A program made the position numbers and the translations under genes. This document shows, in pieces, positions 15,793-46,830 of a stretch of 64,000 nucleotides of DNA; position 1 is the first letter of the stretch, and the number at the start of each line of letters is the position of its first letter. The notes beneath the pieces are model-generated. The model saw only the letters and a program-made list of their open reading frames with translations. It was not told where the DNA came from and made no database searches. The DNA comes from Patescibacteria group bacterium (GTDB taxonomy: Bacteria > Patescibacteriota > Patescibacteriia > Patescibacteriales > JAQVLT01): the NCBI GenBank assembly GCA_028704015.1, contig JAQVLT010000003.1:36997-100996 (forward strand), read 5' to 3'.

Positions 15793-17070
15793 CTAAAGAG
15801 ACAAAGAGTCTCCGGTCATGGGCGCATAAGCTTCGCACCCAAGCTCGCGCGCCAGGCAAACCACTGCCTGACAAGCTTGCGGACTGCCATGCTGGGCAAT
15901 GACAATCCGAGGTTTGACCATCTGAATCGCTTGGCGGATGGCCGCGGCATCGGAATGAGCGGAGAAGCTTAGCTTCTCAACGTGGCAGCCCAATCTGACG
16001 CGTTCTCCACCAACGGAAATATTGCCAGTTTTCAGAAGATCTCTCCCTCTTGTGTCCTCTGCCTGATAACCGGCCAAAATAAGGAGATTCTTCGGATCAG
16101 GACCTTTTACTCGGATGTATTCCATGATAGGACCGCCCTCAAGCATGCCGCTCGTGGCGACAAATACACCTTGCGAAATTAGGTGTATCTGGCGATCCCA
16201 TTGGGAAATCCGCCTGACGGAGTAAAGCGCTTGGCGAAGTGCTTCGGGATCCCGAAGATATTCCGAATGCGCGAGAAATACATCCGTCACATTATTCCCC
16301 ATGCCATCCAAATGCACCGGGCAAGAGAGGCCCATCTCGGCAAGGAGAAGGAGAATCTCTTGCGTCCTCGCCAGCGCGAAGGCGGCGATCATCACTGAAC
16401 CGCCACCAGCGATTGTCTCGGCAACCAGAGACTTAAATCTCTCTTCAACCGCAGTCCTGTCAGGATGCGACCTGTCCCCATAAGTCGCATCAATGATAAG
16501 AATCTCCGCATGCGGAAGACGCTCGCATTTTTTCACGAGGCGAGTATCCATGCTATTAAAATCGCCGGTATAAAGCAATGACCTCCTACCTTGCTTCAGA
16601 ATGATACTGACTGAGCCGGGAATATGGCCAGCCGGGAAAAACTGATAGTGGACATTGCCGCGACGACCCTTTTCTTTGTACCGCATGAGCGACAGTACTC
16701 TCTCAATGTCGCTCTCATTATATCGCGGCTCTTGCTTCTTCTTCGCCGCAATTTTCAGAGAGTCATAGAGAAGAAGCTCTGCCGCTTCTTTGGTGATCGG
16801 CGTACAGAAGACGGGGCAATTCAGCCCATCTTTTGCCAGTTCAGCCAAGCCGCCAACATGGTCAAGATGCCCATGAGAAATCGCCGCGAAGCTGATTTTC
16901 TCCAGCCGCGTGATTTTTTCGGGCCAAGCCATAATTTTGGTTCCGCCTATGTTCGCGGGTTTGAGTCCATAATCAAGAAGGATCCGAGACCCATCAGGAA
17001 ATACTGCTTCGATGCAGCTTCTCCCAACTTCGGATCCTGCACCGTGCATTGTTATCCCGATGTTTCCCAT
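15793..17070 (-). CDS. MBL-fold beta-CASP family hydrolase (RNA/DNA-processing nuclease type)
   Basis: HGHLDHVGG motif and C-terminal FSAHSDAAAI...AQHGSP (beta-CASP motifs B/C). GC-rich. The ORF track begins at GTG 17079; ATG 17070 follows GGAGA. Confidence 0.8.
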   Translation of the reverse strand: MGNIGITMHGAGSEVGRSCIEAVFPDGSRILLDYGLKPANIGGTKIMAWPEKITRLEKISFAAISHGHLDHVGGLAELAKDGLNCPVFCTPITKEAAELLLYDSLKIAAKKKQEPRYNESDIERVLSLMRYKEKGRRGNVHYQFFPAGHIPGSVSIILKQGRRSLLYTGDFNSMDTRLVKKCERLPHAEILIIDATYGDRSHPDRTAVEERFKSLVAETIAGGGSVMIAAFALARTQEILLLLAEMGLSCPVHLDGMGNNVTDVFLAHSEYLRDPEALRQALYSVRRISQWDRQIHLISQGVFVATSGMLEGGPIMEYIRVKGPDPKNLLILAGYQAEDTRGRDLLKTGNISVGGERVRLGCHVEKLSFSAHSDAAAIRQAIQMVKPRIVIAQHGSPQACQAVVCLARELGCEAYAPMTGDSLSL

Positions 17071-17131
17071 ATTGACCACATCTCCTCTCGCTTTGATTTT
17101 TAGCTAAAAAGAACAACTTTACAGATTATGA

Positions 17132-17160
17132 ATATTATCAATTAAAAATAACCCTGTCAA
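17132..17160 (-). promoter_or_regulatory. sigma70-type promoter for the MBL gene
   Basis: Minus strand reads TTGACA, 17-nt spacer, TAATAT. Confidence 0.45.
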
Positions 17161-17213
17161 CTTCAAAATATTATTTAAAATTAGCAAAAATTAATAGTTT
17201 CTTAATAAAAACG

Positions 17214-17242
17214 TTGACAAAATAATTAAGATATGTTATTAT
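17214..17242 (+). promoter_or_regulatory. sigma70-type promoter
   Basis: TTGACA (17214-17219), 17-nt spacer, TATTAT (17237-17242). Confidence 0.45.
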
Positions 17243-17272
17243 TTTATGTTAATTGTTCTTTGAAAGACGTTT

Positions 17273-17330
17273 AGTTCTTGCCGGTTTTGTTGCTAAAATT
17301 TAGCGCTAAAACCGGCAAGAACTGTTTTTT
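17273..17330 (+). terminator. leader terminator/attenuator hairpin
   Basis: Perfect 16-bp stem AGTTCTTGCCGGTTTT / AAAACCGGCAAGAACT, 19-nt loop, then GTTTTTT. Sits between the promoter and the ATG at 17392. Confidence 0.5.
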
Positions 17331-17391
17331 GTTTTCAATTTTACGCGCTTTTCGCGCGCACCCATTCACACACCACAAAGGAGGAAGCACC

Positions 17392-18096
17392 ATGACGGAA
17401 GAGCGATATGACCATATTATGGTAAGCCTCAGGGCAAACCGGAACATGGTGGAGAGGGGGCGAAAGTTGGGTCTCCCCTACGTATTCCGGACAAAGCAAC
17501 AGCAGAAAGAGCTAACCGCGCTGTATGCGGCGAAAGCGGGTGAGGCCAAGGCGTTCCGGCTGGAGCGCGAGGACACCGCCGGCAATCCCCAGGCTGACGG
17601 TGGCAACCTCGTCTTCGGACGGAATGGCCAGGAGAACATCCATCTCTGGTCCCTCTTGGACGACTTGTCCAAGGCCGGCTACGGTCTGACCATCGCCGAG
17701 GTCTTCCAGAAGGAGAGCGACAGTAACGGCGTTGGTTTCATCAGGTTTGTTTTTACCCACGACAAAGCCGTTGTGATGCCGACCTTCTTCGAGGTCAGCG
17801 AAGAACAAGAGCGCTTTATGACTCTTCTCTTCAAACGCCTTTACCGGAAGGTGCACGGTTTCCGAAACAACGCGGCGGTCTCGCTCGAGGGCGAACAAAA
17901 CCCGATCCAGGGGCCCATCATCACGCTCAACGTGGCCGGCCCAGTCACGGAAGCGCGTGAACTCGAAGAGCGGCGCCCTTATCGCCGCGACCTGCGGCTC
18001 CTGGACGAGCTCGGGCATTTCCGGTGCCCGCTCCACGACTCCCAGGCCCACGCTCTGGCCAAGAAGCAGAAGGCCTCCGTCCAGGCCCCCGCCTGA
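17392..18096 (+). CDS. hypothetical protein (GC-rich, no recognisable domain)
   Basis: The ORF track starts at 17278, but ATG 17392 is preceded by AAAGGAGGAAGCACC. 234 aa. Confidence 0.55.
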   Translation: MTEERYDHIMVSLRANRNMVERGRKLGLPYVFRTKQQQKELTALYAAKAGEAKAFRLEREDTAGNPQADGGNLVFGRNGQENIHLWSLLDDLSKAGYGLTIAEVFQKESDSNGVGFIRFVFTHDKAVVMPTFFEVSEEQERFMTLLFKRLYRKVHGFRNNAAVSLEGEQNPIQGPIITLNVAGPVTEARELEERRPYRRDLRLLDELGHFRCPLHDSQAHALAKKQKASVQAPA

Positions 18097-18262: not shown

Positions 18263-18420
18263 TTTTGTCATCTCGAATCCCCCGGTCGCAACCGGGGGTG
18301 AGAGATCTATAATACTTTGTTTTCCTATAAAGCATTATTTATGCGCTTCGCCGTATATTAAAGATCCCTGCCTGCCGGCAGGCAGGTCTCGCACGCCTCG
18401 GGCGGGTCGAGATGACAAAA
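18263..18420. mobile_element. 158-nt MITE-like element (intergenic copy)
   Basis: Perfect 14-bp TIRs TTTTGTCATCTCGA / TCGAGATGACAAAA. Internal hairpins CCCCCGG..CCGGGGG and GATCCCTGCCTGCCGGCAGGCAGG (18363-18386). Confidence 0.65.
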
Positions 18421-19840: not shown

Positions 19841-21049
19841 TTATTTTAACATATTTTTATAAACCGCCACTGTCTCCTCTGCCGCCTTATCCCAGCTATA
19901 TTTTTTTATCTGTTCAAAACCTTTTTGAATTAAATTTTGTCGCAAATTTTCGTCCTTGATTATTAATTTAATTTTTTTTATCATATCATCTTCATTTTCG
20001 GGATCAAAATAAATTGCCGCTTCGCTCAGAACTTCAGGAAGGCAAGATCTATCTGAACTTACTACCGGACAGCCCTGGCTCATAGCTTCTAAGGGCGGCA
20101 AACCAAAACCTTCATAAAGCGAAGGAAAAACATAGGCTGAGGCGTTTTGAAATAAAAATTTCAAATCTTCGTCCGGCACAAAACCGGGAAAATTAACCGG
20201 CGAATCTTCATCGTCTTTAAACAATCTTAATCCGCGAGCATAGTCTTTCACGCGTTTATAAAAATAATCTTCTTTGCCAACTAAAACCAATTTTAAATCA
20301 CTAAACCTTTCACGCAATTTCGGTAAAATTTTAATAAGCATTTCCAAATTCTTATGCGGATAAGCATTGCCAACGTAAAGGATAAACCTCTTTCCTCCCT
20401 CTCCCCCGTCCCCTCTCCTAATTAGGAGAGGGGTGTCTGAGCGAAGTGAAGACGAGGAGAGGTACTGGACTGGGGGTGAGGGAAAAGTTGTCCCTTCATA
20501 AATCATCACGATTTTTTTCGGCTTGACTTTGAATTGTTTTATTATATCTTCTTCTGTATATTTTGAAACAGCAATAATTTTTTTGGCACGCTTAACCGCT
20601 GTCCAGATAACAATTTTATAAAACAAATTTTTCAGTTTATACAGCCAAGGGCTCAAAGTACTCGCGCGTTGGGTGGGATATTTAGTGAGAATCAAATCCG
20701 GAATGGTAACGACAAATTTTACGGGCGTTAATATCGGCACATTAAAATGCGTAAAATGCATCAAACTAACATGTTCGCGCCAAATTAAAAACGGGAGCAT
20801 TATTTGCTCCTTCAAAGTATACCAGCGCGCATTGGCTAATACCTTCTTAACACCCTGGCGCGGCACGACAAAACTATCGTAATTGTCCTTATACAAAAAA
20901 ATTACGTAATCATTTTCCGTATCTTTCCTAATAACCCGATCAACAATTTCCTGCGTGTATCTCCCCAATCCTTTACCGACAGGGCCGTAGAAGCGAGCGT
21001 CAATGCCGATCACGTTATTTTTCTTTTTTAATTGCTCATGTCTACTCAT
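19841..21049 (-). CDS. GT4-family glycosyltransferase
   Basis: EGFGLPPLEAMSQGCPVV (E-x7-E). Interrupted by a palindromic-element peptide. Confidence 0.82.
   Translation of the reverse strand: MSRHEQLKKKNNVIGIDARFYGPVGKGLGRYTQEIVDRVIRKDTENDYVIFLYKDNYDSFVVPRQGVKKVLANARWYTLKEQIMLPFLIWREHVSLMHFTHFNVPILTPVKFVVTIPDLILTKYPTQRASTLSPWLYKLKNLFYKIVIWTAVKRAKKIIAVSKYTEEDIIKQFKVKPKKIVMIYEGTTFPSPPVQYLSSSSLRSDTPLLIRRGDGGEGGKRFILYVGNAYPHKNLEMLIKILPKLRERFSDLKLVLVGKEDYFYKRVKDYARGLRLFKDDEDSPVNFPGFVPDEDLKFLFQNASAYVFPSLYEGFGLPPLEAMSQGCPVVSSDRSCLPEVLSEAAIYFDPENEDDMIKKIKLIIKDENLRQNLIQKGFEQIKKYSWDKAAEETVAVYKNMLK
20386..20485. repeat. about 100-nt variant of the CCCCTCTCCTAATTAGGAGAGGGG element, in frame
   Basis: Core palindrome at 20410-20433. 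Translated ...SLRSDTPLLIRRGDGGEGG... Confidence 0.75.
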
Positions 21050-21235
21050 GCTTTAAATTATTTTAAATGTTAATTGAATGGGGACGAAAATTTTAAATTA
21101 TAAATTTTAAATTTTAATTAAATGATAAATTACTAAATTTTAAATTTTCCTTTGCAGCTAAGGCAACTCGGGAAAACAAAATTTGTCATTTTATTATTTA
21201 AAATTGATTTAAAATTTAAAATTTGATATTTAAAA

Positions 21236-22117
21236 TTATCTTTTTACTTTCTCAATAATCTCGGCCAAACCGTCGTCATCAAAAAACTCAATCACGATTT
21301 CACCCCCATGCCCCTTGCGTTTGATCTCCACTTTGGAGCCAAAAAATTCGCGCAAAGCAAATTCTTTATCCTTGTCGGCGTAATTAATTTTGATACGCGC
21401 ATTTTTTGTGCCGCCCATGCGCCGTGCTTCTTGATTGGTGTCGCGTACTGTTAAATTATTATGTAGAATGCGCCGGAATAAAGCCATTTGCTTATCCAGT
21501 GATTCAAGCCCCAAGATAAACTTAGCATGGCCATCAGTAATTTTTCCTTCAATCAAGGCTAACTGTACTTCTTCTGGCAAGTTTAAAAGACGTAAAGCAT
21601 TAGTTACTACCGGACGCGACTTCCCTACTTTTCTACCTACTTCTTCCTGCGTTAAACTAAATTCGTCAATCAATTTCTGGTAAGCAATCGCGGTTTCAAT
21701 GGGATTTAAATTTTCTCTTTGCAAATTTTCAATTAAAGCTATTTCTAATTTTTCCTGTTCGCCGGCTTCGCGCACGATTACCGGCACTTCTTTTAAACTC
21801 AAAGATTGCGATGCGCGCAAACGCCGTTCGCCGGCGATTAGTTCGTAACCATCAACAGACCTGGTAACAATGAGCGGCTGGATAATGCCATATTGTCGCA
21901 CAGACTCAATCAATTCGTCCAAACTGTAATCGGCAAATCTTTGCCGCGGCTGATGCGGGTTGACTTTTATTTGCGCGGGTGAAATTCGTAATATTTTATC
22001 TTTGTCTTCCGGCGTAATAGTTTCAATTACCTTAATCTCGCCATCTGCCGAAGCATCTTGTTTTTTTACTTTTGGAGGAATCAGCGAACTAAGTCCGCGA
22101 CCTAATGTATTGGACAT
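21236..22117 (-). CDS. parB: ParB/Spo0J partition protein
   Basis: GERRLRAS, LIENLQRENLNPIE, HTH region. Confidence 0.9.
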   Translation of the reverse strand: MSNTLGRGLSSLIPPKVKKQDASADGEIKVIETITPEDKDKILRISPAQIKVNPHQPRQRFADYSLDELIESVRQYGIIQPLIVTRSVDGYELIAGERRLRASQSLSLKEVPVIVREAGEQEKLEIALIENLQRENLNPIETAIAYQKLIDEFSLTQEEVGRKVGKSRPVVTNALRLLNLPEEVQLALIEGKITDGHAKFILGLESLDKQMALFRRILHNNLTVRDTNQEARRMGGTKNARIKINYADKDKEFALREFFGSKVEIKRKGHGGEIVIEFFDDDGLAEIIEKVKR

Positions 22118-23794: not shown

Positions 23795-24049
23795 ATGTAC
23801 ACAGTGTATATTTTAAAAGATGAAAATGGAAATTTGTATAAAGGCATGACAAGTGATATAAAACGAAGATTAAATGAACATCGGCGAGGAAAAACACAAA
23901 CTACTAGAAGAATGAAAAATATCAAATTAGTTTATCAAGAAGAGCTGGCTACATTTGATGCTGCACGCAAAAGAGAATTATATTTGAAAACTGCCGCTGG
24001 AAGAAAATTTATAAAAGAAAAATTAAGGACGCTTAGCTCAGCTGGTTAG
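23795..24049 (+). CDS. small GIY-YIG nuclease family protein (UPF0213/YhbQ-like)
   Basis: 84 aa. YTVYILKDENGNLYKGMTSDIKRRLNEHRRGK... The last 7-8 codons and the stop lie inside tRNA-Val. Confidence 0.85.
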   Translation: MYTVYILKDENGNLYKGMTSDIKRRLNEHRRGKTQTTRRMKNIKLVYQEELATFDAARKRELYLKTAAGRKFIKEKLRTLSSAG

Positions 24050-24103
24050 AGCGCCTCGTTTACACCGAGGAGGTCGAGGGTTCGATCCCTTCAGCGTCCA
24101 CCA
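24027..24103 (+). tRNA. tRNA-Val(TAC), CCA encoded
   Basis: Hand-folded. GGACGCT/AGCGTCC acceptor, D-arm GCTC..GAGC, anticodon stem CCTCG/CGAGG with loop TTTACAC, T-loop TTCGATC, then ACCA. Confidence 0.92.
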
Positions 24104-24185: not shown

Positions 24186-25805
24186 ATGAAGAATGAAAAA
24201 AAACCGGAAAAGGTTGCCTTGTTGAGCGTTTTCAACAAGGACGGGATTGTGGAGTTTGCTCGCACCCTCAAGAACATGGGCTGGAAACTTCTTGCTTCCG
24301 GGGGCACGGCGCAGACGCTCAAAAACGCCGGGCTGGAAGTCAAGGATGTCGCGGACCTGGTCGGCGGCGGCGCTATTCTTGGACACCGCGTGGTCACGCT
24401 CTCACGGGAAATCCACGCCGGCCTTTTGGCGCGTGACATCCCTGAGGACAACGCGGAGCTGGACCGGCTGGGGATCCCGCGCATCGATCTTCTTTGCTCG
24501 GATCTCTACCCGCTTGAGCTGGCCATTGCCGCAGGTAAAACCATGCCCGAGGTCATTGAGATGACCGACATCGGCGGACCCACGCTGATCCGTTCGGCGG
24601 CAAAAGGCCGCCGTATTGTCATCTGCAACCCAAGGGACCGCATGGTTGTTCTCGGCTGGATGACCAGCGGCGAGCTGGACAAGGAAAGCTTCTTAAACAT
24701 GCTTGCCGCCAAAGCCGAAATGACCGTCGCCCGCTACGCACTATCTTCGGCGCGTTTCATCAGCGGCGGCGAGTTCGACGGTTTCCTCGGCCAACGCTAT
24801 CTTGAATGCCTATACGGGGAAAACGCCCCGCAGACTCCGGCCGGCGTCTTTAGCGCCCGTACAAGCGACCTGCTGGCGCTGGACAAACTCCGGCTCTTGA
24901 CCGAAACGTCGTCAAGCTACAACAATACGTGCGACCATGACCGGCTGCTCCAGACAATCACGCACATCGCCGCCGGCTTTGACCTCAACTTCGGCGAAGT
25001 GCCATATATCGCCGTGGCGGTCAAACACGGCAATCCCTGCGGCGTTGGCGTTGGAAAGACGCCGGAAGAAGCTCTCAAGAAGATGATTGACGGCGATCTT
25101 CGCGCCATTCTCGGCGGCATCGTCATGACCAACTTCCTGATAGACGAGACGGCCGCGAAAATCCTGGCCGTCTACCAGGTGCCCGTAAGGAAAAGGCGCT
25201 TGCTGGACGGGATTATCTGCCCGGTCATCACAGATAAGGCCGTTGCGATGCTCGAACGGAAAAAAGCCAAATGCCGGATTCTCATGAACCCTGCTCTAGC
25301 GGAACTGAACGAGAAATCACTGGACACGGCTCCCCGCCTTCGCTGCGTCCGCGGCGGATTTATGGTTCAGCCGAACTACACTTTCATTCTGGATCTGAAC
25401 CACCCGGAAATGAAAAAGTTCGGCCAGGCCACGCCTGAACAGAAACGCGCTATGGTGCTTGCCTGGGCTATCGCAGCCACGGCCAACAGCAACACCATCG
25501 CGCTTGTGAAGGACGGCATGCTTGTCGGCCTGGGATCTGGCCAGCAAGACCGTGTCGGCGCTTGCAAGGTGGCCTGTTTCCGAGCTGACGAATCCGGCCA
25601 TGACATCTTTGGGGCGATTGCGGCAAGCGATAGCTTCTTCCCCTTTGATGATGGCCCGCGCGCCCTTGCCGACAGGGGCGTCAAGGTGATCTTTTCTACC
25701 TCTGGCTCGATCAACGACCAAGCGGTCATTGACTTCTGCCAGGAAAACGGCATCGTGCTCTACATGCTTCCGGACAAGGTGGCCAGGGGTTTCTTCGGCC
25801 ACTAA
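24186..25805 (+). CDS. purH: bifunctional AICAR transformylase / IMP cyclohydrolase
   Basis: 539 aa. MGS-like N-terminus ALLSVFNKDGIVEFARTL..LASGGTAQTL and AICARFT domain. SD GGAGT upstream. GC-rich. Confidence 0.9.
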   Translation: MKNEKKPEKVALLSVFNKDGIVEFARTLKNMGWKLLASGGTAQTLKNAGLEVKDVADLVGGGAILGHRVVTLSREIHAGLLARDIPEDNAELDRLGIPRIDLLCSDLYPLELAIAAGKTMPEVIEMTDIGGPTLIRSAAKGRRIVICNPRDRMVVLGWMTSGELDKESFLNMLAAKAEMTVARYALSSARFISGGEFDGFLGQRYLECLYGENAPQTPAGVFSARTSDLLALDKLRLLTETSSSYNNTCDHDRLLQTITHIAAGFDLNFGEVPYIAVAVKHGNPCGVGVGKTPEEALKKMIDGDLRAILGGIVMTNFLIDETAAKILAVYQVPVRKRRLLDGIICPVITDKAVAMLERKKAKCRILMNPALAELNEKSLDTAPRLRCVRGGFMVQPNYTFILDLNHPEMKKFGQATPEQKRAMVLAWAIAATANSNTIALVKDGMLVGLGSGQQDRVGACKVACFRADESGHDIFGAIAASDSFFPFDDGPRALADRGVKVIFSTSGSINDQAVIDFCQENGIVLYMLPDKVARGFFGH

Positions 25806-25829
25806 TCAAAATTCTTTTAATCCTCCAGC

Positions 25830-25876
25830 AGGACTTTCAAAGTTTCTTACGAGAAACTACGAAAGTCCTTTTTTTC
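25830..25876 (+). terminator. hairpin AGGACTTTC...GAAAGTCCT plus T7
   Basis: Read directly after purH. Confidence 0.6.
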
Positions 25877-26024
25877 TTGCTTTTTTCTTAAAATTTATCT
25901 AATATAAAGTTAGAAAGGAGGGCCAATCTTATCGTAAGATTCGGCTCTTTTTGCACCTTGAAAAAATCGATTTTGAAAACCGTAGAGATAAACTGACAAC
26001 CCCTCAACGGAAAGGACTGATGCA

Positions 26025-27509
26025 ATGGACGAACGGTATACCATAGAAAAAATTACGAAAATCTGGTCGACTGAGAACAAGCTCAGTCTCTGGCAAAAAA
26101 CCGAACTCATGGCAATCAAAGCCAGGGTGATTCTCGGCCTTGTCGCCGAGACGATTTTCCTGAAGATCGAGGAAACGCTCAAGCGAATCCCGATTGACAT
26201 CCCGTGGTGGAAAAACCGCGACAAAGAGATCCGCCACGACCTTAACGCCTTTCTCGATGAGAGACTCCGTCACCTGACCGAGGAATTACAGCGCTACCTG
26301 CACGAGGACATGACCTCCTACGATACGGAGGAACCGGCTTTTGTGTGCATGCTCAGGGAGTCAGTGCAGATTGTCATCAGGAGTCTGGAAGAAGTCTGCA
26401 AAACTCTGAAAGCAATGGCACTCAAATACCGCTACACAATCATGAACGCCAGAACCCACGGACAGGAAGCCAAGCTGCAAAGCTTTGGTAAAAGATGCCT
26501 TACCTGGTACGTGATTTTGCAATTAGACCTCAACAACCTGAAGAATACGGTCAGTTCTCTCAAGTATGCCAAGCTTTCCGGCGCTGCCGGGAACTACGGC
26601 GACATGGATCCGGCGGTGGAGATCGAAACTCTGAAACAGCTTGGATTCGAACCGCTCTACGGCACACCCCAGATCCTTCCCCGCGAGCTTTTTGCTCCAC
26701 TGGCGCAAGCGCTCTGCCAGATCGTGCAGTCGTTGGACAAAATCGCGACCGATATTAGATTAGGCGCGCGTAGTGGACGGCCGATCTTGCAAGAGCCGTT
26801 CGGAAAAAAGCAAAAGGGCTCTTCCGCCATGCCGCATAAAAAAAACACCATCCGCACCGAGCAGATGGAAGGCATGGCGCGCATGGCGCGCGGCTACATG
26901 AATATGATCCTGGAAGCGATCAAAACCTGGGAAGAACGGGCTATTGAACAATCCTGCGTGGAAAGAGTGGCCTGGCCTGATCTCTTCCATGTGGTCGTTC
27001 ATTCACTGAAAACCATGAACGCAGTACTAACCGGCCTAACCGTTTATCCCGACAATATGCTTCTGGAAATCGCTGATTCCTGCGGAACTTACGCTTCGGA
27101 AGAAGCAAAAAAGCTTCTCCGGGAATTCCTGGCGGAACGCGGATTGTCAAGCGAAGTGGCCTACCGTATCGTGCAACTCGCCGCCTTCAATGCTCTGGAA
27201 CTTAGCGGCGGTTTCCAAAGATTGCGTGATGGCATTCCTTCAACGATAGAAGAAGCGGAAGTGGCGTTAAAGGAAGCTTCTAGTTTGGATCGACCAAGGA
27301 GAGAAAGCATCCAGGACATCATCCCTTTAGGCCATTTGCGCCACTCACCCCAACTCGAAGCTACCGAGAAAGAAATCGAGGGATGGAACGTGATGCTGTT
27401 CACCATCTTCTCGAGTCGCAGAATTCGCGATCGCTGGAACCAAATCTTCCGGCCGTCATACCAGCTAAGACGCGAACCTTTTCTCTACGAAAAGATACTT
27501 GGAAAATAA
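26025..27509 (+). CDS. purB: adenylosuccinate lyase
   Basis: Fumarate-lyase signature GSSAMPHKKNT. N-terminus RYTIEKITKIWSTENK. Confidence 0.9.
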   Translation: MDERYTIEKITKIWSTENKLSLWQKTELMAIKARVILGLVAETIFLKIEETLKRIPIDIPWWKNRDKEIRHDLNAFLDERLRHLTEELQRYLHEDMTSYDTEEPAFVCMLRESVQIVIRSLEEVCKTLKAMALKYRYTIMNARTHGQEAKLQSFGKRCLTWYVILQLDLNNLKNTVSSLKYAKLSGAAGNYGDMDPAVEIETLKQLGFEPLYGTPQILPRELFAPLAQALCQIVQSLDKIATDIRLGARSGRPILQEPFGKKQKGSSAMPHKKNTIRTEQMEGMARMARGYMNMILEAIKTWEERAIEQSCVERVAWPDLFHVVVHSLKTMNAVLTGLTVYPDNMLLEIADSCGTYASEEAKKLLREFLAERGLSSEVAYRIVQLAAFNALELSGGFQRLRDGIPSTIEEAEVALKEASSLDRPRRESIQDIIPLGHLRHSPQLEATEKEIEGWNVMLFTIFSSRRIRDRWNQIFRPSYQLRREPFLYEKILGK

Positions 27510-27535
27510 CCCCCCCCACCGAAAGGAGACCGCCC

Positions 27536-28093
27536 ATGAATCCTAAATTTGTACCGCAAGTCGTAATCATCGCCGGAAGCGACACGGATCTCAAAGCGAT
27601 TGAAGATGCCGGTATGTTGAAGGCCTTCCAGGAAATGAGCATAACCTACGCTCTTTCCTTTCTCTCCGCACACCGCCATCCTGATGATCTGAAGAACTAT
27701 TTACTCGCCATGGAAAAGGAAGGTACTCTAGTTTTCATCGGGATCGCCGGCATGTCCGCTGCTCTTCCTGGAGATATGTCAGCAATTCTCAAAAACAAAC
27801 GTCCTGTCATCGGAGTTCCTTTGATCGCACCCGACGGATTCAGCGGTCTGGATGCTCTTTTCTCCATGATCCGTTTGCCAGCAAGCACTGCCGTGGCCGT
27901 CCCGGGAATCGGCAAAGCAGGACTGAAAAACGCGACGATCCTTGCTTGCCAGATTCTTGGAGTAGAGCGGCCCGAAACACAGGTCGCTTTGAACAACTAC
28001 CTCACGAAAAAAGCGGCCAAAAAGCCACCCCAACCCGACTTCGAAATTTTTAACGGGAAAACCGTTCACCACCAACATAAAGGAGGAGCATAA
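27536..28093 (+). CDS. purE: PurE (AIR carboxylase / N5-CAIR mutase family)
   Basis: VVIIAGSDTDL, SAHRHPDD, AGMSAALPG, PVIGVPL. The ORF track starts at 27383, but ATG 27536 follows GAAAGGAGA. Confidence 0.85.
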   Translation: MNPKFVPQVVIIAGSDTDLKAIEDAGMLKAFQEMSITYALSFLSAHRHPDDLKNYLLAMEKEGTLVFIGIAGMSAALPGDMSAILKNKRPVIGVPLIAPDGFSGLDALFSMIRLPASTAVAVPGIGKAGLKNATILACQILGVERPETQVALNNYLTKKAAKKPPQPDFEIFNGKTVHHQHKGGA

Positions 28094-28096
28094 CCC

Positions 28097-28987
28097 ATGA
28101 TCCAGCCCCTGTTCGAAACCAACTTTCCCGGCCTTCCCGTTCCTCGTCGCGGCAAAGTCCGCGACATCTATGACCTAGGTGATTTTCTGCTCATGGTCGC
28201 CACTGACCGGCTATCAGCTTTCGACGTGGTCATGAAGGACCCGATCCCAGGTAAAGGCATTACCCTCACGCAGATGACCTTGTTCTGGCTGGAAATGTTC
28301 GCAGATATGGTGTTGAACCACTTGGTTACGGCTGATCCCGCCCAGTACCCGGACATCTGCAAACCCTACGCCGACATTCTTGTCGGCCGCAGCATGCTGG
28401 TCAAAAAATGTGCGCCCCTGCCAGTGGAATGCATCGTCCGCGGCTACCTTAGCGGTTCCGGCTGGAATGATTACAAAAAGACCGGATGCGTCTGCGGCAT
28501 CCAGCTTCCGCCCGGCCTTCTGGAATCGGCGCAGCTTCCTGAACCGATTTTCACGCCTTCTACCAAGGCTGAGCAGGGCAAGCACGACGAGAACATTTTG
28601 TTTGAACAAGCAGTAAAACTACTCAGCCGCGAGACCGCAGAAAAAATCCAAAAACTCTCACTCGCGCTCTACCAACGGGCCGCGGCTCATGCCCGCAGAC
28701 GCGGCATCATCATAGCGGACACGAAATTCGAGTTCGGGCTTGATAAAGACGGCAACATCGTGCTGATAGACGAGGTTCTCACCTCGGATTCATCCAGGTT
28801 TTGGCCCGCCGCCCAATACGAACCCGGACATGGCCAGCCGAGCTTTGACAAACAAGGCGTCCGCGACTTTCTGGTTAAGATCGGCTGGGACAAAAAGCCG
28901 CCTGCACCCAAACTCCCGATCGGCGTCATCGCCGAGACGCGCGAGAAGTACCTGAAGGCTCTCCGCCTCCTCACCGGCCAATTCTAA
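28097..28987 (+). CDS. purC: SAICAR synthetase
   Basis: GKVRDIYD, LIDEVLTSDSSRFW. Confidence 0.92.
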   Translation: MIQPLFETNFPGLPVPRRGKVRDIYDLGDFLLMVATDRLSAFDVVMKDPIPGKGITLTQMTLFWLEMFADMVLNHLVTADPAQYPDICKPYADILVGRSMLVKKCAPLPVECIVRGYLSGSGWNDYKKTGCVCGIQLPPGLLESAQLPEPIFTPSTKAEQGKHDENILFEQAVKLLSRETAEKIQKLSLALYQRAAAHARRRGIIIADTKFEFGLDKDGNIVLIDEVLTSDSSRFWPAAQYEPGHGQPSFDKQGVRDFLVKIGWDKKPPAPKLPIGVIAETREKYLKALRLLTGQF

Positions 28988-32063: not shown

Positions 32064-33929
32064 TCATGTTCTTTTTACATACGTCGTATGTAAAACTTTA
32101 TGTTCCAAATCTTTATTTTTCTTAAGCCAATCAAGCGCTTCTATTACTCCTTTATTTTCATGCGCGCGCCTGACCTTTTTATCTTTATCAATTTTATAAA
32201 GCGCTTCAATACGTTTCCGGCGAATTTCCTGCGTTGTTGGGATTGGCTGTCCGCCGCCGCCGATGCAGCCGCCCGGACAGGCCATTACTTCAATATAATC
32301 ATAATTATTAAGATTTTTTAAAACTTCGTCAACACAGCCGATGCCGTTTACCACAGCCACGCGTAATTTCTTTCCCGCCACGGTTACCGTAGCCTCTTTC
32401 ACTCCTTCCAGTCCCCTAACTTCTTTAAAATCAATCCGGCGCTCGCAGATTTTTGCTTTACTTTTTTCACAAGCTAAGGCCTGTGCGGCTCGCAAGGCTG
32501 ATTCCATTACACCTCCGCTTCCGCCGTAAAGCACGGCGGAGCCGGAAAATTCTCCCAAAGGATTGTCGGCGGTTGTTTTCTCTATATTGGCAAAATCAAT
32601 ATTATTTTTTTTCATGAGCCAGGCAAACTCGCGCGTGGTAATCACGTAATCAACCGGCGCGTTGCCATTAATCTTCAATTCCGGACGCGAAACTTCAAAC
32701 TTTTTTGCTGTGCACGGCATCACTGAAACTACGATAATGTCTTTTGGTTTAATGCCCATTTTTTCCGCCCAATAAGTTTTTACTAATCCGCCGTTATGAA
32801 CATGCGGGGAACGAGCTGTGGTTAAATTCGGAATCAACTTCGGATGATAAAATTCTACATATTTCACCCAGGCTGGACAACAGGAAGTAATCATCGGCAC
32901 CTCCCCCCCGTCCCCTCTCCTAATTAGGAGAGGGGTGGCGGAGCCGGGGAGAGGTTTGCGGATACGAGCCAGTCTTTCTAATAATTCCTCCGCTTCCACC
33001 ATCGTTGTCACATCCGCGGCAAAACTGGTATCAAAAACATAATCAAAGCCCAAAGCCCGCAAAGCTGAAACAATTTGTTCGGTTACTATCTGGCCATAAG
33101 GCAAACCAAATTCCTCGCCAATACTCACACGAATTGATGGCGCGAATTGCGCCACTACCACTTTATTTTCTGACTTTTTCTTCTTCAAAATTTCTTCCAC
33201 TTTATCCCAATGCGCTTGTTCCTGCGCCGCGCCCACCGGACAATGCAGGGCACACTGGCCGCAATAAATGCAATCAATTGATTTATTTTTTTCTGACAAT
33301 AAATCTTTCGCGCGAAACAATGGCGGCTCTAATATTTTATTACTTTTGAGTGGTATTATTTCTTGTTCACTTCCCTTGCCTTTTAATTCTAGATAGTTTA
33401 TCTTCTGCATCAACGAACAAGCGTCAAGGCAATTGCGACAATCAATGCATTGCGTACCGTCAATTTCCACGGCATTAGAAAATTTATAAATTTTTCTCTT
33501 TCCTTTACGGTCAGGGAAACGGCAAATTTCCAGTTTGTATCGGTCTGCTAAATTCAAGAGTTCGCAATTCACGCGCCAGATGCAAGTCGGGCATTTTTCA
33601 ATATGCTCGGCAAAAATTAATTCAATATTCAGGTTGCGCGCTTTCTTCACCCGATCCGTGTCAGTGCGTATTTCCATACCGCTTTTAACTTTGGTTTTAC
33701 ATGACATTGCTAATTTTGCTCGACCATTAATTTCTACGCAGCAAACACGGCAATTGGCTTTTGGCGGAAAATCTGGATGGCTGCAAAGCGCTGGAATAAA
33801 AATATCGTTTTGGCGCGCTACATTTAAAATCGTCCGCCCTTCTTCGCATTTTATTACCTTATTATTAATTTTTATTTTTACCTTTTTCATAATTTTATTT
33901 AAAACATTCACAAATTGTTTTTCTGTCAA
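32064..33929 (-). CDS. hydA: [FeFe]-hydrogenase catalytic subunit (HydA/HndD-like)
   Basis: 2Fe-2S and 4Fe-4S Cys clusters. H-cluster motifs TSCCPAW, MPCTAKKFE, ACPGGCIGGGGQP. Alternative start at ATG 33890 (MKKVKIKIN). Confidence 0.88.
   Translation of the reverse strand: MTEKQFVNVLNKIMKKVKIKINNKVIKCEEGRTILNVARQNDIFIPALCSHPDFPPKANCRVCCVEINGRAKLAMSCKTKVKSGMEIRTDTDRVKKARNLNIELIFAEHIEKCPTCIWRVNCELLNLADRYKLEICRFPDRKGKRKIYKFSNAVEIDGTQCIDCRNCLDACSLMQKINYLELKGKGSEQEIIPLKSNKILEPPLFRAKDLLSEKNKSIDCIYCGQCALHCPVGAAQEQAHWDKVEEILKKKKSENKVVVAQFAPSIRVSIGEEFGLPYGQIVTEQIVSALRALGFDYVFDTSFAADVTTMVEAEELLERLARIRKPLPGSATPLLIRRGDGGEVPMITSCCPAWVKYVEFYHPKLIPNLTTARSPHVHNGGLVKTYWAEKMGIKPKDIIVVSVMPCTAKKFEVSRPELKINGNAPVDYVITTREFAWLMKKNNIDFANIEKTTADNPLGEFSGSAVLYGGSGGVMESALRAAQALACEKSKAKICERRIDFKEVRGLEGVKEATVTVAGKKLRVAVVNGIGCVDEVLKNLNNYDYIEVMACPGGCIGGGGQPIPTTQEIRRKRIEALYKIDKDKKVRRAHENKGVIEALDWLKKNKDLEHKVLHTTYVKRT
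32898..32958. repeat. 57-60-nt nested palindromic element, in frame in hydA
   Basis: ACCTCCCCCCCGTCCCCTCTCCTAATTAGGAGAGGGGTGGCGGAGCCGGGGAGAGGT. Near-identical to 42044-42100. Confidence 0.85.
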
Positions 33930-34938
33930 AATTTTCTACTTTTATTTTTTCGTCAGATAATTTAGTAAACACATTCTTCATGTAAGATTTTATTGGCAAA
34001 GGCAAAGCCATGCCCAAACCGCACAAAGCCGTTTCGCTTAAATTATTCAAAACATCAAAAAATAGCTGCCAATCAATTTTTTCAGAATTGATAATTTCAT
34101 TCAACCGATAAATTCCTTCCCGGCAAGGCGTGCACTGTCCGCAAGATTCTTTTTGAAAAAATTCCAACCAATATTTGATTAATTTCTTGGGCTGGTGCTT
34201 GGAAATATTATGCACTGTGATTAATCCCGCGCCACTCGCCGGATTTTTCAATTGTTTGGAATTCAAAACCTCTCCGGAAGCATCTCCACCCACTTGGACA
34301 AAGAAAGGAAAATCGGGATAATTTTTTGTCATCTTCAAAATTTTTTCAATTGTTTCATCGTCAGAAAATTCATAAACTCCGGGCTTAAAAGACTCGCCGC
34401 CGATGGTATAAAATCTTTTATTTTTATATTCGCCATCGTTAACCAAACTGACATTATAAAAAGTTTCTACATTGTTAATCAAAGTTGGGCAACCAAAAAG
34501 TCCGGCGGTTGTGGGAAATGGCGGCCGCAAGCGCGGTTCCACGCGGCAACCCTCAATCGCGTTGAGCAATGACGACTCTTCGCCGCCAATATAACCCGAA
34601 CCAACCGGTTTTATAAAAAATTCTATTGGCAATTGGCCGATCGCATTTTCTAATTTATTGCCATATTTTTTATGGTAATCATGATTAATATAGAAATACG
34701 CTTTCTCGGCGCCAAGAAAATCAATGGCCAATTTAATGCCACCAATTACTCTTCCGGGATAATTTTCCAAAATATACCCATCCTTTTTTACTCCCGGCTC
34801 GCCTTCGCTGGCATTGCATACCACAAATTTTCTTTTTCCCGGAACATCTTTAACCATGCCCCACTTTATTGCGGTTGAAAAACAAGCGCCACCGCGACCG
34901 ACTAATTTAGCTTTTTTAATTTTATTTAAAATCGACAT
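33895..34938 (-). CDS. NuoF-like flavoprotein subunit (HydB/HndC-like, minimal)
   Basis: GRGGACFSTAIKW, GGEESSLLNAIEG, SCGQCTPCREG. Confidence 0.85.
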   Translation of the reverse strand: MSILNKIKKAKLVGRGGACFSTAIKWGMVKDVPGKRKFVVCNASEGEPGVKKDGYILENYPGRVIGGIKLAIDFLGAEKAYFYINHDYHKKYGNKLENAIGQLPIEFFIKPVGSGYIGGEESSLLNAIEGCRVEPRLRPPFPTTAGLFGCPTLINNVETFYNVSLVNDGEYKNKRFYTIGGESFKPGVYEFSDDETIEKILKMTKNYPDFPFFVQVGGDASGEVLNSKQLKNPASGAGLITVHNISKHQPKKLIKYWLEFFQKESCGQCTPCREGIYRLNEIINSEKIDWQLFFDVLNNLSETALCGLGMALPLPIKSYMKNVFTKLSDEKIKVENFDRKTICECFK

Positions 34939-40349: not shown

Positions 40350-40475
40350 GCTTAACTCGCGCCCAGCCGTAAACGGCAGGGCTATTTTGTTAAAGCCCCA
40401 TTAATGGGGCTTCCGCCTATCTAGCCCAATCCATTTATGGCCATGCCTACCGGCAGGCAGGTTGGGCGTAGAAAT
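40350..40475. repeat. GC-rich palindromic block in the rpsB 5' leader
   Basis: AAGCCCCATTAATGGGGCTT plus GCCCAA..CCTACCGGCAGGCAGG..TTGGGC. Shares the CCGGCAGGCAGG core with the other elements. Confidence 0.6.
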
Positions 40476-41574: not shown

Positions 41575-42765
41575 TTAAATCTCAATTATTCCCCCTCCCA
41601 ATATTTCATCACCTTTATAAAATACCGCACTCTGCCCAGCCGTAATCGCCCGTTCGGGTTTCTCTAGTCGTGCGAATAGGGCATTATCTTGCTCCCACGC
41701 GACATTACCCTGTTCTTTTTTAGCTCCCCTCGCCTGGCTGGCCTGCCTGCCGGCGAGGCAGGGAGAGGGACAGGGGGCGAGGGTGCATTTTATCGGCTTA
41801 TGCCGATATCTTATCACTACTTCACATTTAAACGGAAATTTCGGCTCTGCACACGAAACCCAATTCACGTTGCTGAGATAAAATTTATCGCTATAAAGTA
41901 GCGGGTCATCATGGTCGCTCGTCACATATAAAATATTTTTTTTATAATCGCACTTCACTACGTAATACGGCCCGGTGCCGCCAATCTCCACACCGCGCCT
42001 CTGCCCAATCGTGTACAACGGCAGGCCTTTGTGCTCGCCGACGACCTCTCCCCCGTCCCCTCTCCTAATTAGGAGAGGGGTGGCGGAGCCGGGGAGAGGT
42101 TTAGCGGAGGTGAGGGCAATAATCTTACCTGGTTTTAATTTTATTTTTCCTTTCAAAAATTCATTGTGCTCCCCGGGAAGAAAACAAACATCCTGGCTCT
42201 CGGTTTTTAAATTTGGCAAACCCGCTTTGGCTGCAATTTTTTTAATATCTTCTTTTTTGTAATCCCCAAGCGGAAATAAAATCTTTTGTAATTTTTCCTG
42301 TGTTAAAGTATATAAAAAATAACTCTGATCCTTACTCTCGTCCTTCCCCTTTATCAATTTATATAAATACTTTTTACTTTTTACTTTATACTTTTTACTT
42401 TTTACGTAATGACCTGTTGCCAAATAATCCGCTCCCAGTTCGCGCGCGATTTGTAAAAGCTTTCCAAATTTTATAAATTTATTGCATTTGACACACGGAT
42501 TCGGCGTAATGCCGCGCTCATAACTTTCTAAAAAATAATTAATAATTTCTTTTTTAAACTCCGGCGCCAGATTGACTGGATAAAATTTTATTCCCAACTT
42601 CTGACAGACATGCCGCGCCGCGTCCTCGGCATTTTTATTTTCCACGCCCAAACGCATAAAAACTCCCATTACTTCATAACCGGCTTTTTTTAATATCATT
42701 GCGGTAACGGAAGAATCCACTCCGCCTGATATGGCAACTATTATTTTTCTTTTTTTCTTTATCAT
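41575..42765 (-). CDS. mnmA: tRNA 2-thiouridine(34) synthase
   Basis: PP-loop VAISGGVDSS, NPCVKCN, TIGQRRG, AITAGQSAVFY. Two element insertions. Confidence 0.9.
   Translation of the reverse strand: MIKKKRKIIVAISGGVDSSVTAMILKKAGYEVMGVFMRLGVENKNAEDAARHVCQKLGIKFYPVNLAPEFKKEIINYFLESYERGITPNPCVKCNKFIKFGKLLQIARELGADYLATGHYVKSKKYKVKSKKYLYKLIKGKDESKDQSYFLYTLTQEKLQKILFPLGDYKKEDIKKIAAKAGLPNLKTESQDVCFLPGEHNEFLKGKIKLKPGKIIALTSAKPLPGSATPLLIRRGDGGEVVGEHKGLPLYTIGQRRGVEIGGTGPYYVVKCDYKKNILYVTSDHDDPLLYSDKFYLSNVNWVSCAEPKFPFKCEVVIRYRHKPIKCTLAPCPSPCLAGRQASQARGAKKEQGNVAWEQDNALFARLEKPERAITAGQSAVFYKGDEILGGGIIEI
41724..41786. repeat. GC-rich palindromic insertion (CCTGCCTGCCGGC family) in frame in mnmA
   Basis: CCCTCGCC...GCCTGCCTGCCGGCGAGGCAGG...GGCGAGGG. 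Translated PCPSPCLAGRQASQARG. Confidence 0.7.
42044..42100. repeat. 57-nt nested palindromic element, in frame in mnmA
   Basis: ACCTCTCCCCCGTCCCCTCTCCTAATTAGGAGAGGGGTGGCGGAGCCGGGGAGAGGT. Translated KPLPGSATPLLIRRGDGGEV. Confidence 0.85.
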
Positions 42766-42802
42766 GTTTGATGAGTTTGTATTAGCTAAAATATTAACAA
42801 TA

Positions 42803-42960
42803 AAATCCTAAATTCTAAACTCTAAATTCTAAACAAGCACAAAACTCAAAACACAAAATCCAAAACAACTTCTAAATTTTTAATTTTTGATATTTAAAAT
42901 TGTTTTGTGCTTTGGATTTTTAATTTTGGATTTGTTTAGAATTTAGGATTTAGTGCTTAG
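42803..42960. repeat. about 160-nt AT-rich imperfect hairpin in an intergenic spacer
   Basis: Outer 18-bp perfect arms AAATCCTAAATTCTAAAC (42803-42820) / GTTTAGAATTTAGGATTT (42934-42951), with further imperfect inner pairing. Confidence 0.7.
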
Positions 42961-42989
42961 AATTTTTTCAAACATTTTGCAGATTTGCA

Positions 42990-44231: not shown

Positions 44232-44318
44232 AGCGCAAATTTTAAATATTAAATTTTAAATCAATTTTAAATGATAAATGACAATTAAAAATTTAATAAT
44301 TTATCATTCAATTAAAAT

Positions 44319-45497
44319 TTATAATTTAAAATTTAAAATTTTACTGTATTCCTTTCCCACTCTTTCCCAACTAAATTTTTCCACTCTTTTCAAACCTTTC
44401 GCGATTAAGCTTTCACGCAATTTTTGATTATTTAAAACTTCTTCAATCGCTTTGGCGATTTCATTAATATTAAAAGGATTTACCAGTATTGCCGCCTCGC
44501 CGACAACTTCCGGCAGACTGGAAACCGCGCTCGCGATTACCGGCGTGCCCGAGGCCATAGCTTCAAGCGGCGGAAAACCGAATCCTTCATAAAAAGACGG
44601 GAAAACAAAAACCGAAGCAAGTTTGTAGAGAGCCGGCTTGTCTTCGTCATCAACATACCCCAAGAATATTATATCATTTTTATACTTAGATTTCTCGCGC
44701 TCCGCCAAAATACTCTCATATTTCCAGCCCATGCCACCAGCTATAATCAACTTTTGACAACCTGCCTGCCGGCAGGCAAGGTTAACATTTGACAATTGAC
44801 TTCTATACTTATTGTAAGCCTGAATAAGGCCAACGATATTTTTTCTCGGCTCAACCGTACCCAAAAATAAAATGTATTTTTCTGGAAGGTTATATTTCTT
44901 TCTAATATTTTGAAATTTGGGAATTGAAAATTGAAAATTGAAAATTTTAAAGCGTTCATCAACACCCGAGTATATTACCCTCGCTTTCTCCTCTGGCACC
45001 CCACATAATTCCACAACATCCCGTCTGGTGTTTTCCGATATCGCAATTACTAAATCAAACTGCTTAATCAATTTTTTTACATTCAAGGCACGGTGCCAAA
45101 TATTTTTTCGCCAGCTGAAATACTCCGGATACCGCAGAAATGACAAATCATGAATGGTGATAATTTTCCGGCAATCCGAGGAAAGCGACAAAAAATTAAT
45201 GTGCGGCGCCCAAAAAACATCCACTCCGCCTAGCAACTTGTCAATCTTCGGCCAGCAAAAAATTTTTTGCAAAATATAATTAAAAATTTTATTCGGATAT
45301 TTGGTTCTATAAATTTTAACATTGGGCTGATCAAATTTCGGCAACCGCTCGCTGATATCGCGATAAGAATTGTAATATAACAAATATTCATTACTCTTAT
45401 CCTCTGCTAAAATTTCTTTAACTAAAGCCAACGTGTACTCCGACACGCCACTATATCGCTTATCCATGAGTGTCCGAATATCAATGCCAATTTTCAT
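44319..45497 (-). CDS. GT4-family glycosyltransferase
   Basis: [20 protein letters not shown]. Contains the insert [12 protein letters not shown]. Confidence 0.85.
44759..44783. repeat. 25-nt palindrome of the CCTGCCTGCCGGCAGGCAGG family, in frame
   Basis: AACCTGCCTGCCGGCAGGCAAGGTT. Confidence 0.75.
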
Positions 45498-46727: not shown

Positions 46728-46830
46728 CTTTTGTCATTCCGGATCCGCCCGGGGGCGTAATCCGGAATCCCCGCCTACACCGAGGCTTCGGCGGGCAGGC
46801 AGGAGCCAGCGATAAAAACATTATTTTTCC
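46728..46830. repeat. degenerate copy of the TTGTCAT...GGCAGGCAGG element (intergenic)
   Basis: TTTTGTCATTCCGGATCCGCCCGGGGGCG...CGGCGGGCAGGCAGG. No matching right TIR seen. Confidence 0.5.

Follow-up and report, generated by a model that had tools for sequence, protein, structure and literature searches.

A GC-rich palindromic repeat, probably mobile, read in frame beside the H-cluster motif of a Patescibacteria [FeFe]-hydrogenase

Introduction

Why should a hydrogenase gene in AT-rich DNA carry, in frame and directly beside the H-cluster motif TSCCP, a GC-rich palindrome that recurs almost letter for letter in an unrelated tRNA-modification gene? The question is raised by a 64,000-nt stretch of a Patescibacteria metagenome-assembled genome (MAG; GenBank GCA_028704015.1, contig JAQVLT010000003.1, positions 36,997 to 100,996), here called the window, in which the hydA gene for a group A [FeFe]-hydrogenase (32064-33929, minus strand) contains a 57-nt element at 32899-32955. 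A sequence-only reading of this DNA had taken the element for mobile DNA that persists by keeping the reading frame, as the Rickettsia palindromic elements (RPEs) do. In our view, the block in hydA is very probably a selfish, non-autonomous palindromic repeat that is filtered by selection and translated as a flexible loop. What points to a mobile, frame-kept repeat under selection is its presence in two unrelated genes and, as a family, at 86 places in other genomes, the open frame of 28 out of 28 intragenic copies, and the existence of HydA relatives with filled and with empty sites. From these comparisons we infer mobility, translation of the insert, its surface exposure and its neutrality.

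Results

On re-reading, positions 32899-32955 were exactly as first described, i.e., ACCTCCCCCCCGT-CCCCTCTCCTAATTAGGAGAGGGG-TGGCGGAGCC-GGGGAGAGGT, with an inner perfect palindrome of 24 nt (CCCCTCTCCTAATTAGGAGAGGGG, 32912-32935) that forms a 10-bp stem and an AATT loop (the element, its parts and its copies are given without strand). The outer arms, for which pairing over about 10 bp had been proposed, are the left inverted repeat ACCTCCCCCC (32899-32908) and its partner on the right, GGGGAGAGGT (32946-32955); in hydA, 9 of their 10 positions are paired, and in the second copy, in mnmA, all 10; the right arm terminates in GAGGT, a match to the Shine-Dalgarno core. Between the palindrome and the right arm lies TGGCGGAGCC (32936-32945), a remnant of the family's second hairpin module, whose full form in other genomes is GGAGCTCCGCCAGCTGGCGGAGC. 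The 57 nt correspond to 19 codons, and the element is GC-rich within an AT-rich gene, as had been claimed (GC fraction 0.68, against 0.416 for the remainder of hydA and 0.383 for the window). Folded as single-stranded DNA, it forms an outer 10-bp stem around the inner hairpin, with z-scores of -3.5 to -4.3 versus shuffled sequences (-3.5 for the hydA copy). The 24-nt palindrome occurs three times in the window, at 20410, 32912 and 42057, and had no match in 100 shuffled windows, even when 3 mismatches were allowed. Rfam searches of the whole window at the gathering threshold, and of 32800-33050 at a permissive E-value, returned no family and only chance miRNA-like matches.

The second copy (42044-42100) lies within mnmA, the gene for tRNA 2-thiouridine synthase (41575-42765, minus strand). 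The near-identity noted at the outset holds: the two copies differ at 1 of 57 bases, the mnmA copy encodes the same peptide within its open reading frame (ORF), and the likeness ends with the element plus TT. Read on the minus strand, the hydA insert gives ...ERLARIR-KPLPGSATPLLIRRGDGGEV-PMITSCCPAW (ORF 32064-33929), with the element peptide (K)PLPGSATPLLIRRGDGGE(V); tryptic peptides expected from the block would be KPLPGSATPLLIR and GDGGEVPMITSCCPAWVK. The identical peptide had been taken as the sign of a mobile element that keeps the reading frame. The occurrence of the family at 86 places, always in frame when within a gene, agrees with this conclusion, but the identity of the peptide is largely forced: on either strand, TAA or TAG interrupts two of the three frames that run through the palindrome, and the single open frame reads PLLIRRG.

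The insertion is probably benign for the hydrogenase, and the gene looks functional. Its product, annotated as 608 aa from a start at 33890, is 100% identical to an NCBI Patescibacteria MAG protein (P0001). It has the H-cluster motifs of a group A [FeFe]-hydrogenase (TSCCPxW, MPCxxKxxE and ExMxCxxGCxxGGG) intact, as TSCCPAW, MPCTAKKFE and EVMACPGGCIGGGG, together with N-terminal F-cluster domains; the Pfam matches were Fe_hyd_lg_C (1e-85), Fer2_4, NADH-G_4Fe-4S_3, ferredoxin and Fe_hyd_SSU domains. The best solved relative was 8a6t, the electron-bifurcating HydA1 of Thermoanaerobacter kivui (2e-129), followed by A. woodii HydA1 and CpI. The short loop that the sequence-only reading had ascribed to clostridial HydA at the insert position was borne out in solved structures: the loop has 4-6 residues in solved [FeFe]-hydrogenases, HMMER alignments to 8a6t and 7q4v contain an 18-residue gap precisely at IRKPLPGSATPLLIRRGD, and the match to CpI covers 100 residues versus 118 in the query. 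Chlamydomonas HydA1 (PDB 3lx4 / 2n0s alignment) has a loop at this same position, HLEAHPHSDEPL, that is naturally about 10 residues longer, so the position tolerates added length, and the size of this loop differs among [FeFe]-hydrogenases.

An AlphaFold2 model of HydA, built from 81 homologues (mean pLDDT 86.9, pTM 0.89; TM 0.84-0.89 versus 8a6t and CpI), gave the insert (residues 312-331 of 608) as a coil with pLDDT ~46-52, between helix 289-310 and the TSCCP strand, both with pLDDT >90. In CpI numbering, the helix before the loop carries the proton-pathway residues E279, E282 and R286, the last of them at the surface. On this model, the loop with its insert should be solvent-exposed, at the mouth of the proton pathway. 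Modeling had been suggested as a check for a surface loop; it returned a low-confidence coil, and the exposure itself we infer from the position of that coil. A second lineage-specific, low-confidence segment, EPPLFRAKDLLSEKNKS (residues 187-199, about 33290-33330), separates the ferredoxin-like cluster motifs; solved HydA structures lack it, and it is not GC-rich.

The family was surveyed with the exact 20-mer core CCTCTCCTAATTAGGAGAGG in one genome per species, and its counts are lower bounds, biased to conserved cores; the species representatives do not include the source genome, and the 89 copies referred to below are the 86 places plus the 3 copies in the window. The 86 places are mostly in Patescibacteria (Falkowbacteria, Kuenenbacteria, Parcubacteria and others), several of whose MAGs have 4-10 exact-core copies each. 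The build of the family consists of terminal inverted repeats of 10-11 nt, (T)ACCTC[A/T]CCCC ... GGGG[T/A]GAGGT(A), around a core hairpin, CCTCTCC-TAATTA-GGAGAGG, with an optional second hairpin (e.g., GTCCCGCCAGCTGGCGGGAC or GTCGCTATCGCTC) that is often found on either side of the core. Short forms are near-perfect 48-nt palindromes, and long forms reach ~80 nt. Terminal inverted repeats of the form A-CCTC[A/T]CCC ... GGG[A/T]GAGG-T were present in 61 of 89 copies, with the terminal A in 50 and the terminal T in 52 of the 61. Some subtypes are common to different genomes, e.g., the window copy in a glycosyltransferase gene (copy A, described below) and locus L051 have the same second hairpin in different genes.

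Relatives were also found beyond the Patescibacteria, i.e., as a partial copy in the genome of an Agitococcus isolate, in MAGs of Latescibacterota and Chloroflexota, in a viral contig of 56% GC (IMGVR_UViG_3300032053_003352, intergenic at 4084-4137; L097), and in three metagenome contigs of 56-63% GC (L098-L100) that have a GGGGTGGCGGAGCCGGGGAG junction in common. Judged from these matches, the superfamily reaches well outside the phylum. A metagenome scan for the window's own subtype gave only three related elements, all in high-GC contigs, and blastn searches of plasmid and phage collections with a full-length element gave no match. Several copies are in contigs labelled as uncultured Gammaproteobacteria (L015, L019, L020, L053, L071 and others) with 31-45% GC, and one such contig equals a Falkowbacteria contig over the 125 nt compared around the element (L002 versus L062); these MAG labels look unreliable. 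[quoted passage not shown]

A tabulation of coding and intergenic copies across genomes, with their frame, had been proposed as a check on the sequence-only reading, and its outcome supports that reading. About 70% of the copies are intergenic and 28 of 89 lie inside long ORFs, every one of these (3 window genes and 25 elsewhere) in the single stop-free frame, PLLIRRG. Hosts confirmed by Pfam are PolA, RecG, enolase, UvrC, MurG, LigA, KsgA/RsmA and UvrB, and hosts that recur by peptide similarity are KsgA (5 loci), LigA (3), a PP-loop protein (3), MurG (2) and PolA (2); the MnmA copy at L050 is at the same turn as the one in the window. The stop-free frame, the whole number of codons and the tolerant loop make it most likely that the hydA insert is expressed with its gene, through transcription and translation, as a flexible loop of 19 residues on the surface.

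This count of frames also bears on the idea that the element is not translated, either because it is excised from the mRNA or because ribosomes pass over it, as in T4 gene 60 or with the GC-rich byp elements of yeast mitochondria. Superficially, a stable hairpin of high GC content within a gene rich in AT does resemble byp. However, neither bypass nor excision would impose a constraint on the frame, and none of the 28 intragenic copies was in a stop-containing frame; nor were matching take-off and landing codons evident. Nothing in these genes suggests bypass or excision, and we regard this explanation as highly improbable. Genes split by an element were considered as well: deletion of the element in silico gave 4 candidates, all of which were adjacent genes and none of which was split.

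The loop of HydA appears to have been occupied repeatedly. An alignment of HydA orthologues had been recommended to establish presence or absence of the insert; among 120 Patescibacteria homologues, 59 had the basal loop of 4-6 residues (e.g., ...ERVK-NKGV-MPMMTSCCP), 22 had peptides of the GC-palindrome type (e.g., TSPHPLLIRRGGGGVRDG, TSPHPPLIRGGGRGER and NTSPQPSPSKGEGV), and 39, mostly from one clade, had peptides from AT-rich repeats (e.g., NNKNSKVK and KLEIGNWKL...). The sequence-only reading had also named distant HydA orthologues with a homologous loop of unrelated DNA as an observation that would count against it. Many unrelated inserts do exist, as does the longer Chlamydomonas loop, but most loop inserts are palindromic repeats and the hydA insert is 98% identical to the mnmA copy; the hydA insert is therefore not a diverged ancestral loop, and the proposal stands. 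The same core recurs in one orthologue; in another, the stem is preserved by a double compensatory change (CCTCCCC / GGGGAGG), and others have different hairpins.

When a rough neighbor-joining tree was made with the insert masked, the GC-type inserts were scattered, each near sisters with empty sites, and the insert state required 24 parsimony changes versus 40 with shuffled labels; on this tree, the pattern is one of many events, but non-random. Three filled/empty sister pairs had 78%, 82% and 91% nucleotide identity. At filled sites the element starts 0-4 codons after ...ER(L/I/V), with a net gain of 24-36 nt. Similarly, MnmA has inserts in 50 of 120 homologues at the turn that holds the second window copy, a β-turn and, in Patescibacteria MnmA, a hot spot for insertions. 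A second turn of MnmA is variable in many homologues; in the window it is occupied by a different GC palindrome (CLAGRQASQARG, in frame at 41720-41788) and in orthologues by PLLIRKG- or PLLARRG-type inserts. We read the recurrent occupation of the same loops as repeated arrival where ~20 extra residues would be tolerated. Targeting of GGAG-like codons in the empty loop was considered and rejected, the motif being present in only 1 of 4 empty HydA sites.

Several observations weigh against arrival of a mobile repeat in hydA as we envisage it. The two closest HydA relatives, P0002 (75% identity) and P0005, are also filled at this loop; in P0002 the modules follow one another in the same order and the right end has decayed, so that its insert looks like a decayed family member. 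Filled HydA sites swap out some of the original loop codons and are not simple additions, a pattern also compatible with an older insert altered by recombination or gene conversion. In the flanks of the 61 copies with terminal repeats, no target-site duplication or conserved target was seen beyond the terminal A...T and AT-richness. No IS200- or RAYT-like transposase gene (RAYT, the transposase associated with repetitive extragenic palindromic sequences) was found by tblastn in the window and the surveyed loci (727 kb) with an approximate IS200 TnpA query, and neither the window nor the 727 kb showed a parent insertion sequence (IS) that shares the terminal repeats, although this was a weak test. 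Finally, the distribution outside Patescibacteria rests in part on MAG labels that look unreliable.

On the first of these points, the hydA insertion need not be recent: it could be an old one that was subsequently made uniform with other copies. The explanation that this leads to overlaps with our own: a loop insertion in the ancestor of the clade would have been inherited vertically, and kept similar or replaced by ectopic gene conversion. We consider it possible but rather unlikely, although the filled state of the nearest relatives, the replacement of loop codons without a target-site duplication, and the subtypes common to copies within one genome all speak for it. It is harder to reconcile with GC-type inserts scattered among empty sisters (one pair having 91% nucleotide identity), with a position within the loop that varies by 0-4 codons among lineages, and with the same subtype in different genes of different genomes (copy A and L051). 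In the window's own clade, gene conversion may have acted on an insertion that was already old.

The intergenic copies point to a further property of the element. Both ends read GAGGT outward, i.e., the Shine-Dalgarno core, so that a copy lying between genes can provide the following gene with a ribosome-binding site, or restore one. Of 102 intergenic ends, 12 were followed at exactly 7-9 nt by the ATG of an ORF that encodes at least 80 aa, against 0.8% expected from random positions (binomial p ~5e-11). Loci with a GAGGT end ahead of an ATG are L004, L007, L028, L038, L042, L043, L045, L052, L059, L065, L069, L072 and L077, and at L007 the element makes up the whole spacer from the stop codon to the start of the next gene. 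Either the ends may have been co-opted as ribosome-binding sites, or only those copies that restored such a site would have survived.

The same termini enter into an explanation by selected function, in which the insert is either an added loop that adjusts subunit contacts or the nearby exit for proton transfer, or a hairpin in the mRNA whose internal Shine-Dalgarno-like sequence paces translation ahead of the H-cluster strand. The insert directly follows the helix with the proton-pathway residues named above, inserts recur here in many lineages, and the element end GGGGAGGTGCCGATG puts GAGGT 4 nt ahead of a conserved Met codon. Such a function is nevertheless improbable, in our view, given that the same 57 nt are found in mnmA and a variant in a glycosyltransferase gene, that most copies of the family are intergenic, that about half of the orthologues are without an insert, that insert sequences vary freely, and that the insert is predicted to be disordered.

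The third window copy, copy A, is the longer nested variant in a gene for a GT4 glycosyltransferase (19841-21049, minus strand). A longer copy with the same core had been reported here, and it is present, but its length is no clean multiple of 3, so that the ends given for it (20386-20485) are only approximate; we place it at 20386-20487. Its core (20410-20433) is followed by an intact second hairpin at ~20436-20454, the inner pair of outer repeats is at 20398-20406 / 20455-20463, and an extra pair is at ~20387-20401 / 20472-20487. The copy lies in the linker of the two GT4 Rossmann domains, i.e., the Pfam domains end at residue 186 and resume at 218, with PLLIRRG at 207. All three window copies are within intact long minus-strand ORFs, in the only stop-free frame.

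A related, partly decayed member of the family was found in a structural RNA gene. The RNase P RNA gene (49486-49945, minus strand) has 460 nt versus 367 positions in the Rfam model, and at 49579-49628 (minus strand), in the variable P15-P17 region, it contains ACCTCACCC, the hairpin CCCTCTCC-TTGTGAA-GGAGAGGG (49594-49616) and a degenerate right end; here the gene has 57 nt versus 34 nt in the model. P12 of the same RNA is expanded by an AT-rich repeat at about 49755-49800.

Directly upstream of hydA lies a gene for a hydB-like, NuoF-type subunit with FMN and 4Fe-4S domains (33895-34938, minus strand), and a GAPDH gene is two genes beyond it.

The window contains other repeats. A second family of GC-rich palindromes, CCTGCCTGCCGGCAGGCAGG, is found at 15211-15230, 18367-18386, 40437-40466, 44756-44785, 41720-41788 and 46735-46814; in-frame copies are present in a DUF4012 protein (peptide SLPAGRQGS) and, in a related form, at the second hot-spot turn of MnmA, close to its C-terminus. 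AT-rich inverted and tandem repeats (unit e.g. AAATTTTAAATT) fill the intergenic spacers at 15651-15707, 21086-21245, 22118-22161/22549-22593, 42802-42966 and 44237-44358. At 11262-11295 there is a perfect hairpin with a 15-bp stem, AGGTGTCCGACACCC-TATA-GGGTGTCGGACACCT, between the alaS ORF (9312-11252) and an ORF at 11328-12326, both on the minus strand; lying upstream of alaS, it could be a terminator of the neighboring gene or another palindromic element.

Two blocks of high GC content, 15793-18096 and 24186-28987, have 51-58% GC in a window of 38% GC. The former contains a β-CASP RNase and an ORF of unknown function, and the two best CCTGCCTGCCGGCAGGCAGG copies (30 nt, 93% identical, in direct orientation) flank the high-GC block at 15.8-18.1 kb; the latter, with purH, a purB-like lyase and purC, begins right after tRNA-Val (24027-24103). 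Both have the look of islands gained by horizontal transfer, a chimeric assembly being less likely. Such blocks of doubtful origin, in a genome assembled from a metagenome, are what might lead one to ascribe the hydA element to faulty assembly or binning, i.e., to a repeat-induced chimeric join with foreign GC-rich sequence. That explanation is hardly credible, since hydA is collinear with its homologues on both flanks of the insert and in frame, and dozens of assemblies, made independently in different studies, contain the same family in frame.

Discussion

In the mechanism that we favor, a family of GC-rich palindromic repeats would have spread within and between Patescibacteria genomes, with relatives beyond the phylum, and one copy would have landed in the short loop that joins the helix before the TSCCP strand to that strand. 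It would persist there through a stop-free frame, a whole number of codons and a loop that tolerates added residues, and the hydrogenase would most likely stay functional. In general, a copy would persist only if it lies in a permissive loop of a protein and in the stop-free frame, in a peripheral part of an RNA, or between genes without disrupting the initiation of translation. With one frame open in both orientations, the family looks shaped to do little harm in gene-dense genomes. As to how it moves, the terminal inverted repeats argue for a MITE-like origin, while the absence of a target duplication and a build rich in hairpins favor a single-strand mechanism, whether REP/RAYT-like (REP, repetitive extragenic palindromic) or other. 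A role as a DNA-uptake sequence was considered and rejected, the density of 3-4 copies per 64 kb being far too low.

A bolder proposal, which we advance only tentatively and consider somewhat more likely to be wrong than right, is that this is a "stealth" mobile family of ultra-compact genomes. Stop-free in either orientation and with a ribosome-binding core at both ends, it would be harmless both within and between genes, would recurrently colonise permissive turns (HydA, MnmA, KsgA, LigA, PolA, MurG and UvrB/C) as well as RNase P RNA across the Patescibacteria, and may be exchanged with other phyla and phages. It would then represent a major unrecognised source of variation in protein length in this radiation, perhaps moved by a mechanism not yet described, given that neither a target duplication nor a known transposase was seen.

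Behavior like that of RPEs is seen here in a very large, mostly uncultivated radiation with tiny, gene-dense genomes, and it touches essential enzymes, at times within a few residues of a catalytic motif. If our interpretation is correct, many lineage-specific inserts and length differences in Patescibacteria proteins would be accounted for, and annotators and structure modelers should be cautious with such loops, which would be derived from repeats. The inserts would also be natural experiments on which loops can accommodate 15-30 additional residues in enzymes such as [FeFe]-hydrogenase, and they would pose the mechanistic question of what moves a hairpin element of 50-80 nt without target duplication. 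The Shine-Dalgarno-like ends suggest a route by which repeats may spread where intergenic space is nearly nil.

How does the family compare with known systems? RPEs, as summarized in later papers, are ~150 bp long (about 100-150 bp) and form ten families, with nearly half of the 44 copies in R. conorii inside ORFs (PMC10969869, citing Ogata 2000, 2002), and they are also found in structural RNA genes (PMC5896051, citing Ogata 2002). On those accounts the likeness is close: both are dispersed palindromic repeats, many of them in frame in unrelated housekeeping genes to which they add a conserved peptide (here in 3 window genes and 25 elsewhere), and both occur in structural RNA genes; RPEs are thought to persist where the protein fold allows, and no transposase is known for them in these summaries. 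The sequence-only reading was thus right about the in-frame behavior, but by size, composition, architecture and hosts the element appears to be no member of an RPE family. As described in these sources, RPEs of about 100-150 bp and about ten families are confined to Rickettsia, or to Rickettsia and close relatives, whereas this family, set apart from them by such descriptions, has 48-80 nt and is found in Patescibacteria, including the MAG studied here, and beyond. It differs from RPEs also in being GC-rich in AT-rich genomes, in its nested hairpin modules and Shine-Dalgarno-like termini, and in occupying the same loops in many lineages.

Like MITEs (Coxiella QMITE1/2, PMC5896051; ERIC and BOX), the elements are short, non-autonomous and mostly intergenic, have terminal inverted repeats (in the 61 of 89 copies mentioned above) and occasional in-frame copies, and can carry expression signals. 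MITEs, however, are typically 100-400 bp long with target-site duplications and often a parent IS, whereas here neither a duplication nor, in the window and the 727 kb of loci, a parent IS was found and the intragenic fraction, ~30%, is high. With REP sequences and bacterial interspersed mosaic elements (BIMEs), which are linked to RAYT, an IS200/IS605-like transposase, the elements have in common that they are GC-rich imperfect palindromes of tens of nt, without target-site duplication, modular or mosaic and often between genes, with possible roles as terminators or mRNA stabilisers (PMC3733652). REPs differ in having a 5' GTAG or CGTC head and a flanking RAYT gene and in being extragenic by definition; the present elements end in A-CCTC and GAGG-T (ACCTC / GAGGT), 28 of 89 are intragenic, and no RAYT-like gene was seen in the window and the surveyed loci with the approximate query described above.

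Mobile GC-rich palindromic clusters, such as those in var1 of S. cerevisiae, are known from the AT-rich, compact mitochondrial genome of yeast, and the byp elements of Magnusiomyces mitochondria are said to have been described by Lang and colleagues in 2014. The likeness lies in mobile GC-rich palindromes that can sit in protein genes of an AT-rich compact genome; the difference is that byp breaks the frame and needs ribosomal bypass, whereas every intragenic copy here is in an open frame (28 of 28, with no split genes), and on bacterial chromosomes. Small dispersed repeats of cyanobacteria, reportedly treated by Elhai and colleagues in 2008, are likewise very small and mobile, often nested and sometimes coding. 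PARCELs are palindromic and coding in both orientations (PMC2996958). Both differ from this family in sequence, hosts and architecture, PARCELs forming tandem amphipathic repeat proteins as against the single inserts in enzyme loops found here. What is distinctive of the present family is the combination of a tiny, nested and modular build, GC-richness, Shine-Dalgarno-like ends, recurrence in the same loops, and a reach across the radiation and possibly beyond it.

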